From: an uncultured Candidatus Saccharibacteria bacterium
Lineage (GTDB): Bacteria; Patescibacteriota; Saccharimonadia; Saccharimonadales; JAGQNJ01
Reading direction: 5' to 3'
Assembly (NCBI GenBank): GCA_964426755.1
Contig: CAYRRR010000005.1
Span: 1 to 43,763 of the forward strand
DNA length: 43,763 nt
The notes below the pieces were generated by a model. The model was not told the origin of the DNA, did no database searches, and saw only the letters and a list, made by a program, of their open reading frames with translations. Made by a program: the position numbers and the translations under genes. Shown piece by piece: positions 6,432 through 13,457 of the stretch (position 1 is its first letter; every line of letters starts with the position of its first letter).

Positions 6432-6460
6432 TTGACAGTCTTTTTTGTAATTTATAAGAT
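6432..6460 (+). promoter_or_regulatory. sigma70-type promoter TTGACA-N17-TAAGAT
   Basis: Consensus -35 at 6432-6437, 17-nt spacer, -10 at 6455-6460. Confidence 0.7.
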
Positions 6461-6466
6461 GTTAAC

Positions 6467-6646
6467 AGCACTTGAATAAAAAAAGTGCTCAAAAACAAAA
6501 ACGACCACAAAAACAACGGCTTCTCGCAAGCCGTTGTTCCATCAAAAGACAAAATTAAAAAATCAAAGCCTTAACAAACAACTTTCAAAACCAAACAACT
6601 ATACTCGCAAAAACTCATCGCCCTACCGCGATGAGTTTTGCTTTTG
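6467..6646 (+). ncRNA. putative A/C-rich small RNA with three hairpins
   Basis: Promoter upstream. Hairpins at 6467-6489, 6512-6538 (11 bp) and 6610-6639 (12 bp, then GCTTTTG). No ORF in the transcript. Confidence 0.55.
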
Positions 6647-9386: not shown

Positions 9387-9389
9387 ATG

Positions 9390-9741
9390 TGCCAGCCTAT
9401 CTATAAGCCGGGTTCTGTTATTGCTAGCTATCTATCTAGCCTGTTAGTTGCCTAACAGATCAAGCGGGTTATGTACGCATATCTTAGCGGGAAACTATCG
9501 CCAAAAGGCAAATAGATATGCTACCTTGCAGCAGACAGGGTTTACCTCTCTTCTATGTCGCCATAGAAGACTGTGAGCTCTTACCTCACTCGTTTCACCT
9601 TTACCCCTTGTTAAAGAGGAAGTTTTGTTTCTGTGGCACTTTCCCTGGGGTTACCCCCGGTTGCCGTTAGCAACTGTCCTTCCCTATGCTGCCCGGACTT
9701 TCCTCCTCAAATAATTGAGGCAGCTAGCCGATAACCTGGCA
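9390..9741 (-). ncRNA. rnpB: RNase P RNA, bacterial type A
   Basis: Minus strand has GAGGAAAGTCCGGGC, GAAAGTGCCACAGAAA, GGTAAACCC and ACAGAACCCGGCTTA; ends pair (TGCCAG/CTGGCA); TGG-TATAAT at 9752-9747. Confidence 0.95.
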
Positions 9742-12223: not shown

Positions 12224-12300
12224 TGGTCGGGGTGACAGGACTTGAACCTGCGACCTCACGGCCCCCAGCCGTACGCGCTAGCCAACTGCGCCACACCCCG
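12224..12300 (-). tRNA. tRNA-Pro(GGG)
   Basis: 77-nt cloverleaf CGGGGTG...CACCCCG-ACCA; anticodon loop CTGGGGG; T-loop TTCAAGT. Confidence 0.95.
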
Positions 12301-12350
12301 ATAAGGTAAGTTTACTACAGATTATCAAATGTACGAGCCGCTCGGTCCTC

Positions 12351-12504
12351 ACGGTCACCTTCGGCGACCCCGTCGCAACTTCTTTCAAAACAAGTTTTGA
12401 AGAGTTGACTCCCTTGCGGATTGCCACCGGCAATCCTCACCCCAGCCGTACCCGTATGTCCAACTGCGCCACACCCCGTCGTCAGAATCGACGGTCGCCT
12501 TCGG
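12351..12504 (-). repeat. degenerate 5'-half copy of tRNA-Pro within a hairpin-rich element bounded by 14-nt direct repeats
   Basis: 12460-12478 and 12440-12451 are exact copies of tRNA-Pro segments. ACGGTCACCTTCGG (12351) and ACGGTCGCCTTCGG (12491) lie 140 bp apart. Confidence 0.75.
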
Positions 12505-12589
12505 AAAACTACATTTTCATCTACGTTATAGTCGCTTCTTCCTCTCAAATTTGCAAATCCTCTCGCAAATTTGTATTAGACCGTAATCT

Positions 12590-12722
12590 AAAAACCGGGC
12601 CATCACCCTTGATTAATCTGATAAATCTAAGTGGGTTCTCTCAAGCAGTTACCACGGTAGCTACTGTATATAAGATCCCTATCAGAAGCTGTTAGATAAT
12701 CATTGATGGGCGATGACCCAGC
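12590..12722 (-). ncRNA. rod-shaped small RNA, 6S-like candidate
   Basis: TATAAT at 12734-12729. The first 15 nt GCTGGGTCATCGCCC pair with GGGTGATGGCCCGGT, followed by a U-tract. Further internal helices are present. Confidence 0.6.
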
Positions 12723-12750
12723 ACTTACATTATACGCCCTGACCGGGTGA

Positions 12751-13377
12751 CTAGCCTAGCAAAATCTCAAAGAAAAAGGCATTCACAAAACTTACTATGG
12801 GAATTAATACAGGGAATAGAATGAACATGAAGAGAAAAATTCCAGCTAGCCCAAAAGCTTCGATTTGCTCCATTACTCTTCTAAGCGGTTCAGGCGCTAC
12901 CGCATAGAGCACACGAGAACCGTCCAGTGGCGGAAACGGAATCATATTAAACACAAACACCGCAACATTAATTTGTAAAAAGAGTGCTACGGCTTCATAT
13001 AAGTCTGTACCAATTGCAATTGAAAAGATCCTGATCAGTGCAGCTGCTACAAAAGCAAGCAATAAATTGCTTAACGGACCAGCAAGACCCACCATTGCCG
13101 CACCAAACTCCCCGCCGCGTACGCGGTAGGGATTGAACGGTACCGGTTTTGCAATCAAGAACGGGGGCAGGCCTAACAGTAAAAGCACTAAAGGAAGCAA
13201 AATCGTTGTAAAAGGATCAATGTGTTGAAGGGGATTGAGCGTTAACCTTCCGAGGTCTTTAGCAGTAGTATCACCCAGCCAATGCGCTGCAAACGCATGC
13301 ATTGCCTCATGAAAGCTCAGTGAAATTATTATACTAACCAATATTATCGCAATTGCGTTTATGCTAAATCCGTCCAT
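12751..13377 (-). CDS. site-2 protease family (M50) Zn metalloprotease
   Basis: HEAMH and NMIPFPPLDG motifs. Start moved to ATG 13377 (MDGFS), which follows TGT-TATACT. Confidence 0.9.
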   Translation of the reverse strand: MDGFSINAIAIILVSIIISLSFHEAMHAFAAHWLGDTTAKDLGRLTLNPLQHIDPFTTILLPLVLLLLGLPPFLIAKPVPFNPYRVRGGEFGAAMVGLAGPLSNLLLAFVAAALIRIFSIAIGTDLYEAVALFLQINVAVFVFNMIPFPPLDGSRVLYAVAPEPLRRVMEQIEAFGLAGIFLFMFILFPVLIPIVSFVNAFFFEILLG

Positions 13378-13417
13378 GGCTTTTAAAGTATAACAAGTAA
13401 GTCTCTTGCTCAAAATA

Positions 13418-13446
13418 TTGACATATAAGAGGTAAACCAGTACAAT
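13418..13446 (+). promoter_or_regulatory. rpmB promoter TTGACA-N17-TACAAT
   Basis: Near-perfect sigma70 consensus upstream of rpmB. Confidence 0.8.
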
Positions 13447-13457
13447 TAACACTTGTC

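Follow-up and report, generated by a model that had tools for sequence, protein, structure and literature searches.

A probable miniaturized 6S RNA in a Saccharibacterium and the predicted exchange of its release helix

In a 43,763-nt stretch of the genome of an uncultured Saccharibacterium (hereafter the window), we found a stand-alone gene for a rod-shaped RNA that is probably the 6S RNA (ssrS) of this organism, miniaturized and diverged (~133 nt versus ~185 nt), with its own promoter and a predicted cycle of the 6S type. In most bacteria, transcription is regulated globally by 6S RNA, which imitates an open promoter and holds back RNA polymerase. We know of no annotated 6S RNA in the Candidate Phyla Radiation, and our literature search for 6S RNA in Saccharibacteria-type lineages found no paper on the subject. 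We class as new here the natural miniaturization of a 6S RNA, together with a change in the type of its release helix in the clade to which the window belongs.

Gene and fold of the RNA in the window

The RNA (Table 1) is encoded by a gene present in one copy in the genome, between an open reading frame for an M50-type membrane peptidase (positions 12751 to 13452) and tRNA-Pro(GGG) (12224 to 12300), all on the same strand. An earlier note on this DNA had placed a TATAAT hexamer with the predicted start 7 nt later, and this was borne out (12734 to 12729, then six bases, then G at 12722). The 30 nt upstream of the RNA contain an exact TATAAT in 63 of the 94 homologues collected, whereas 2.3% of shuffles contain one, and its position peaks 7 to 9 nt before the closing helix. 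We found no convincing -35 box. At the other end, many homologues, not all, have a U-rich tail after the closing stem, and the first U of the U5 tail in the window (12594) is able to pair with G1. In the families represented by loci L021, L035, L037, L038, and L055, the closing helix found by the model has only ~5 bp and TATAAT lies 20 to 35 nt further upstream. Their RNAs probably have longer closing stems, with a total of ~150 to 170 nt, so that the size of "130 nt" is not uniform across the family.

Table 1. Coordinates of the 6S-like RNA gene and of its structural elements in the window, ordered along the RNA.
Feature	Positions	Strand	Basis or remark
-10 promoter hexamer, TATAAT	12729..12734	-	Exact sequence; 6 nt before the predicted start G at 12722
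6S-like RNA, ~133 nt, shortened	12590..12722	-	Ends predicted: 5' from the promoter, 3' from the U-run
Closing stem P1, 5' strand, nt 1-15, GCUGGGUCAUCGCCC	12708..12722	-	Pairs with 12594-12608
Helix P2 ("downstream helix"), 5' strand, nt 21-29, UGAUUAUCU	12694..12702	-	MFE and alifold consensus
Central bubble, 5' strand, nt 30-43, AACAGCUUCUGAUA	12680..12693	-	Aligns with the 13- to 14-nt 5' bubble of the homologues
UCUGAUA, distal 5' bubble, 5' half of the predicted bubble-collapse helix	12680..12686	-	Pairs with UAUCAGA when the template is blocked
Apical (upstream) arm	12633..12679	-	95-98% of cells paired, with compensatory changes (94 homologues)
Central bubble, 3' strand, nt 91-103, ACUUAGAUUUAUC	12620..12632	-	First base is the invariant A (12632), unpaired, that follows CCC
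UAUCAGA, nt 100-106, 3' half of the predicted collapse helix	12617..12623	-	Overlaps the 3' strand of P2
Helix P2, 3' strand, nt 104-113, one bulged U, AGAUUAAUCA	12610..12619	-	MFE, alignment, and covariation
Closing stem P1, 3' strand, nt 115-129, GGGUGAUGGCCCGGU	12594..12608	-	Pairs with nt 1-15
U5 tail after the closing stem	12590..12594	-	Sequence; possible terminator or 3' end

Evaluation of the fold revealed a minimum free energy (MFE) of -51.7 kcal/mol for the minus strand, versus -31.1 ± 3.5 kcal/mol in 200 dinucleotide shuffles (z = -5.9), none of which (0/200) was as good; the plus-strand fold reached -39.4 (z = -3.3). Nucleotides 1 to 15 pair fully with nucleotides 115 to 129, followed by U5, exactly as the earlier note had drawn them. 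Four of these 15 pairs are G-U wobbles, and since the plus strand would have C-A mismatches in their place, the RNA is assigned to the minus strand. Compensatory changes were found at 10 of 14 P1 pairs in ten relatives. The apical arm starts with GGG/CCC; the conserved A.A mismatch, UCUU/GAGA, and an internal loop follow, and the arm ends in a stem with the tetraloop CGUG (12653 to 12656). Its GGG and CCCA are invariant across the 94 homologues; the unpaired A that follows CCC (12632), conserved in 94/94 sequences, has its counterpart in "CCCACCUgg", part of the Rfam consensus for 6S RNA. As a lead only, we note that this A sits at the equivalent of the promoter -11 A and might play a -10-like role. 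The arm of the window's RNA is equivalent to only ~21 bp, a length that makes a -35-like contact doubtful; truncated B. subtilis 6S-1 RNAs that are missing this region still go through the entire 6S cycle in vitro (PMC8876501).

The inner helices that had been described before (UGAUUA/UAAUCA, CUGAUA/UAUCAG, GGG/CCC, and CAGU/ACUG) and an 11-nt 5' bulge (UCUAACAGCUU) are all present in the sequence. As a ground state, however, the rod drawn with UGAUUA/UAAUCA and CUGAUA/UAUCAG did not hold, as the MFE fold and the alignment consensus both use a longer helix, UGAUUAUCU/AGA-U-UAAUCA, plus UCUGA/UUAGA. Because their helices overlap, the earlier rod and the MFE fold are alternative states and not one structure. 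The bubble of the window's RNA measures 14 by 13 nt. The UCUGA/UUAGA pairing of the free fold is a 5-bp helix that closes much of it, leaving a 7/6 loop, the helix, and a 2/2 loop, and this modeled fold looks less like an open promoter than that of a canonical 6S RNA.

Conservation and competing helices

Homologues were found by blastn in 10 of 41 relatives, a reach that made a covariance model necessary. Model R1 was built from alignment A1, which holds ten sequences from the window's own family, and R2 is an order-wide covariance model; the E-values of both are rough, because their calibration was shortened. They score the window's RNA (12590 to 12721) with 145.8 bits (R1) and 77.6 bits (R2). 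One copy was found by R1 in 165 of 201 genomes of the order, covering 125 of 152 genera, and one full-length copy (~125 to 140 nt) by R2 in 108 of 301 genomes across the phylum. Together with the z-score of the fold, these distributions establish that the RNA is a real, conserved, single-copy gene.

The earlier note had suggested looking for covariation across Saccharibacteria, and the helices do covary, both in the ten relatives, where 21 of the 44 predicted pairs are changed on both sides (A1), and in the 94 homologues. In the latter, 92% of cells were paired, against 76% in shuffles (0/500) and 34 to 47% with slid partners; these counts rest on MAFFT alignments, in which an offset in the UUAA/UUG region understates the pairing of P2. 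The pairing measures for the apical arm, P2, and the hairpins described below beat 500 shuffles and all slid-partner controls. Read 5' to 3', the consensus of the order starts with P1, variable and covarying, followed by AUGAUAAUCUG (S1) and AAUACUUAUCAUU (S2, the 5' bubble strand). It continues with the apical arm, GGGAGYUC-AAUAUUY-stem-C(CGUG)G-stem-GUGC-GRRCACCC, which contains the A.A mismatch, and ends with the invariant A, CCUGG...(loop)...CCAGG-UUGUCAU (S4, S5), and the 3' strand of P1. The bubble of the family measures 13 to 14 by 13 to 17 nt.

Three pairings involve S1 and S5, each of them backed by compensatory change in the order. P2 (S1:S5) is 87% paired in the 94 sequences and occurs in variants such as UUGAUUUCCUG/CAGGUUAAAUCAA and UAAAUUUUCUG/CAGAGUAAAUUUA. 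A 3'-bubble hairpin (S4:S5) is also 87% paired, with the variants UCUGCC/GGCAGA and CUUGG/CCAAG; where S4:S5 is CUUGG/CCAAG, S1 becomes UCUUG, which amounts to a triple covariation. The third pairing, "hairpin A" (S1:S2), joins the 5' strand of P2 with the 5' bubble, as in AAUGAUAA/UUAUCAUU at nt 16 to 40 of L042:1501-1635(-); it is 75% paired, with an AU-to-UA change in 22 sequences. The majority of families can form hairpin A, which is missing from several clades, the window's among them. The textbook 6S cycle does not explain this hairpin, and the 6S descriptions of PMC8876501 make no mention of it. Hairpin A and the 3'-bubble hairpin make up a cruciform alternative to the rod, and the family can adopt two folds, a rod with a bubble of ~13 by 15 nt or a form with local hairpins in place of P2.

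The CCUGG/CCAGG hairpin is lost in the window's clade (mean of -3.9 kcal/mol versus -9.3 in other families), and the UCUGAUA/UAUCAGA duplex has a mean of -7.1 kcal/mol there versus -2.1 in other families. We found one compensatory variant of this collapse helix (UUUGCU/AGCAGA, in G006); the CUGAUA motif is unconserved outside the clade. P2 and the collapse helix are mutually exclusive, as UAUCAGA overlaps the 3' strand of P2. Upon blocking of the predicted template of the product RNA (pRNA) in silico, the window's RNA took up the structure drawn in the earlier note, with the 7-bp collapse helix stacked on the apical arm, and RNAs of the majority type formed the 3'-bubble hairpin. B. subtilis 6S-1 and A. 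aeolicus 6S have been described as forming a "central bubble collapse helix", in which the distal 5' bubble pairs with the 3' strand of P2, and an extended 3'-bubble hairpin is the release type of E. coli (PMC8876501). Judging from the sequences, the window's clade is a derived form, in which the 3'-bubble hairpin was swapped for the collapse helix. The idea of a conformational switch, already put forward for this RNA, holds in its broad outline, with P2 versus CUGAUA/UAUCAG as the best-supported switch. The pairing that had been named for it, AUCUAA/UUAGAU, is present but weakly supported, as it shows no compensatory change and is broken in 3 of 10 relatives. An H-type pseudoknot made of AUCUAA/UUAGAU and CUGAUA/UAUCAG was rejected as sterically implausible, its linker being 1 nt long.

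Homology to 6S RNA and alternative readings

The Rfam 6S model (RF00013) gave no match at E ≤ 10 to the window's RNA, searched as 701 nt or as 141 nt, and none in the whole genome. The only Rfam matches of the RNA at E ≤ 10 were chance ones of ~12 bits, to one microRNA and two snoRNA families. Five genera of the window's family, its closest clade, were also without an RF00013 match at E ≤ 10, and G008, another genus in the same taxonomic family, matched with 27.8 bits. Outside the family, RF00013 matched 13 of 20 loci from the other families of the order (21 to 39.6 bits, E down to 1.6e-5) and 6 of 18 R2 loci from other classes (31.5 to 41.9 bits); the E-value was 3.7e-7 when 156 nt were searched alone. 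A scan of 40 whole genomes of the order returned three significant matches, all of them R1 loci. The matches run end to end (model positions 1 to 187), on the same strand and coordinates as the R1/R2 loci, and RF00013 is the only Rfam family that recurs on the homologues. Such full-length matches on the right strand and coordinates, in homologues outside the window's clade, support the "candidate minimal 6S RNA" of the earlier note, whose proposed check with the Rfam 6S and SRP models yielded sub-threshold 6S matches on homologues, none on the window, and no SRP match. No member of the family reaches the RF00013 gathering score of 46.4 bits, which is an annotation threshold and no biological property, and the gene therefore goes unannotated. 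As the window's RNA has no direct match to RF00013, its 6S identity is transitive, from its own clade to the other families via R1 and from these to RF00013.

In the RF00013 alignment, GGGAG falls on "GGGag", CACCCACCUGG on "caCCCACCUgg", CCAGGUUG on "CaGGuUCa", and UAAUCUG (the 5' strand of P2) on "CuGAgCC", and the 5' bubble of the homologues falls on the unpaired stretch of the model. The homologues carry the best-conserved signature of 6S RNA, GGGAG...CACCCACCUGG...CAGGUU, with an exact match to the Rfam consensus around the bubble. The window's RNA keeps GGGA...ACCCAC, and CUUAG...CAGAUU replaces CCUGG...CAGGUU. As to the architecture expected of a 6S RNA, the family has a rod with a closing stem, a large central bubble, and an apical stem, in which P1, P2, and the apical arm covary. 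It also has conserved sequence around the bubble (GGG plus CCCACCUGG...CAGGUU in the homologues) and an alternative helix that forms in silico once P2 is unwound (the 3'-bubble hairpin or the collapse helix). The genome encodes RpoD (TIGR02393, 370.5 bits versus a cut-off of 354).

The sub-threshold scores of every family match and the lack of an RF00013 match in the window's own clade would also fit a structured small RNA that is peculiar to this lineage and has a different function or partner, such as a riboregulator that is bistable between rod and cruciform or a sponge for a protein. Its likeness to 6S RNA would then reflect remote ancestry or convergence, and the window's clade may have left the 6S function. 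The mostly paired bubble of the free fold, the loss of the conserved CCUGG/CCAGG hairpin in the window's clade, and covariation that backs the cruciform (hairpins A and C) as strongly as the rod are in line with this reading. We nevertheless consider it unlikely, as the 6S matches are global, recurrent, strand-correct, and centered on the best-conserved 6S positions, and no other Rfam family recurs. Moreover, the invariant GGG/CCCA core and P2 are kept in the window's clade, together with a release helix that stands in for the lost hairpin and is of a type already described for B. subtilis 6S-1 (PMC8876501).

In most relatives, tRNA-Pro(GGG) is located ~10 to 200 nt 3' of the RNA, and this linkage is kept across many families of the order, with an orientation that flips between tandem and convergent (loci L013-L042). 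The position of the tRNA just 3' of the RNA, sometimes ~10 nt away, is what one would expect if the rod were a co-transcribed 5' leader or processing partner of tRNA-Pro(GGG), serving only the maturation or expression of the tRNA. This is highly improbable, given that the tRNA is convergent, on the opposite strand, at L013, L017, L021, L024, and L036, that some families have no tRNA within 1.5 kb, that a spacer of ~290 nt (12301 to 12589) separates the two genes in the window, and that the RNA keeps its own promoter and U-run. With the tRNA 3' in most families but either tandem or convergent, the RNA is a stand-alone gene and no leader. The spacer in the window is GC-rich, filled with hairpins, and missing from most relatives, and it carries a copy of the 5' half of tRNA-Pro (~12440 to 12478, minus strand; CGGGGUGUGGCGCAGUUGG...ACGGCUGGGG). 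At a distance of 3 kb from the 6S-like gene, the window also encodes a class A RNase P RNA (9388 to 9739, minus strand, 259 bits), and RNase P RNA is found within ~1 to 1.5 kb of this gene in at least two relatives (L009 and L122).

The genome has no annotated SRP RNA, and an RNA of ~130 nt that is hairpin-like and present in one copy would fit a divergent SRP (4.5S) RNA in size and shape; the SRP models RF00169 and RF01854 had no match at E ≤ 10 in the window and none in the genome or relatives. We rejected this reading, to which we give next to no credence. The window's RNA has no GGAA/GNAR tetraloop and no AGCA or AGG loops, and the family has a YNNG apical loop on a long regular stem, with a variable apex and a conserved middle. 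The protein partners are missing too. The Ffh M domain (PF02978) is absent from the genome, neither the 9 genomes searched from the order nor the 61 from the phylum contain an SRP54-type GTPase (PF00448; controls detected in 14/14 cases), and no DTAGR motif was found among the open reading frames of at least 150 aa in the genome. Weak 450-aa matches in the SRP GTPase search correspond to RadA. With SRP motifs, Ffh, and FtsY all absent, the earlier note was correct to exclude SRP RNA from the missing GGAA of helix 8. The loss of SRP has been published for Parcubacteria (PMC4508563), and the pathway seems to be missing from our whole phylum sample, which would extend that report.

Other candidates were also rejected. 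The conserved AUGAUUAUCUAA could be read as a tiny open reading frame (M-I-I-stop), but all its positions are invariant, including the third ones, it lacks a Shine-Dalgarno sequence, and it forms helix P2. A hammerhead-like core (CUGAUA) or another self-cleaving ribozyme was dismissed because the motif is unconserved beyond the clade and has no Rfam match, and neither Rfam nor ARAGORN supported a 5S rRNA, a tmRNA, or a Y-RNA-like RNA. The window contains a second, unassigned small-RNA locus (6432 to 6646), A/C-rich and with one terminator-like hairpin. It was rejected as a 6S candidate for being A/C-rich and unstructured, and by its sequence alone it resembles neither 6S nor SRP RNA.

Proposed cycle and comparison with known 6S-type systems

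Taking E. coli 6S and B. subtilis 6S-1 as models, we propose that the 6S-like RNA is transcribed stand-alone from its own TATAAT promoter and folds into a rod composed of the closing stem (P1 and P2), a central region of 14 nt/13 nt, and a short apical arm. This rod would occupy the DNA channel of the RpoD-RNA polymerase holoenzyme by mimicking an open promoter, and the enzyme would be sequestered. Upon a rise in NTPs, the polymerase would copy the RNA from the proximal 5' bubble into the 5' strand of P2, yielding a short pRNA with a predicted sequence of about 5'-GUUAGAUAAUCAU in the window's clade and 5'-(G)UAUUCAGAUUAUCAU... in the majority type. The pRNA hybrid would free the 3' strand of P2. 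In the window's clade, the freed UAUCAGA may then pair with UCUGAUA of the 5' bubble, which would give a collapse helix of the central bubble like that of B. subtilis. For most other Saccharibacteria, pairing of CCAGG, once freed, with CCUGG of the 3' bubble may give a release hairpin of the E. coli kind. With both release types, collapse of the bubble would let the RNA leave the polymerase.

For the phylum as a whole (Patescibacteria), we tentatively suggest a joint reading, in which a natural minimal 6S RNA of ~130 nt has an apical arm too short for a full -35-like contact and is bistable between rod and cruciform, with hairpins A and C competing for P2. Its release device would have been exchanged from the E. 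coli type to the B. subtilis type inside one Saccharibacteria family. If this is true, these RNAs mark a lower size limit for the capture of RNA polymerase, and two textbook release mechanisms are interconvertible over short evolutionary distances, the exchange of the release helix inside one family being a neat evolutionary case. If a 6S RNA persists in these epibionts with ~1-Mb genomes, their RNA polymerase remains under growth-phase control despite the loss of the SRP pathway. The ~130-nt RNA fits predictions from truncations of B. subtilis 6S-1 and would be a compact natural substrate for structural biology. With a covariance model tailored to the lineage, such as R2, annotation pipelines could label the gene in thousands of metagenome-assembled genomes.

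Like the 6S RNA of E. coli and other gammaproteobacteria (SsrS, RF00013), the RNA described here is the product of a stand-alone, single-copy gene and forms a rod of closing stem, central bubble, and apical stem, with the signature GGG...CCCACCUGG...CAGGUU around the bubble. Most Saccharibacteria also have a 3'-bubble hairpin that can form only after unwinding of P2, like the release hairpin of E. coli (PMC8876501). The differences reside in size, ~130 nt here versus ~185 nt, with ~27 apical-arm and ~15 closing-stem positions of RF00013 missing in the homologues, and in the window's clade, which is without the 3'-bubble hairpin and undetected by RF00013, whereas homologues score 21 to 42 bits. 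With B. subtilis 6S-1, the window's RNA shares a 7-bp complementarity (UCUGAUA/UAUCAGA) that fits the definition of the collapse helix (PMC8876501) and forms in silico. In contrast to 6S-1, it has much shorter arms and a free-fold bubble partly closed by a 5-bp cross-bubble helix, and no sequence similarity between the two is detectable.

The Ms1 RNA of Actinobacteria is reported to be related to 6S RNA in structure only and to bind the core of RNA polymerase, not the holoenzyme (PMC9130861). Ms1 resembles the Saccharibacteria RNA as a rod-shaped RNA that replaces canonical 6S in a lineage where the Rfam 6S model fails, and differs from it in that the Saccharibacteria RNA has kept homology to 6S at the sequence level. 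Engineered truncated 6S-1 RNAs, reduced to the bubble and two short arms, bind sigma-A polymerase, template pRNA, and are released in vitro, with a ~10-fold lower affinity (PMC8876501). By analogy, these constructs are a functional precedent for a natural mini-6S RNA. They were made in the laboratory, whereas the short form described here occurs naturally, as the conserved state of an entire phylum.
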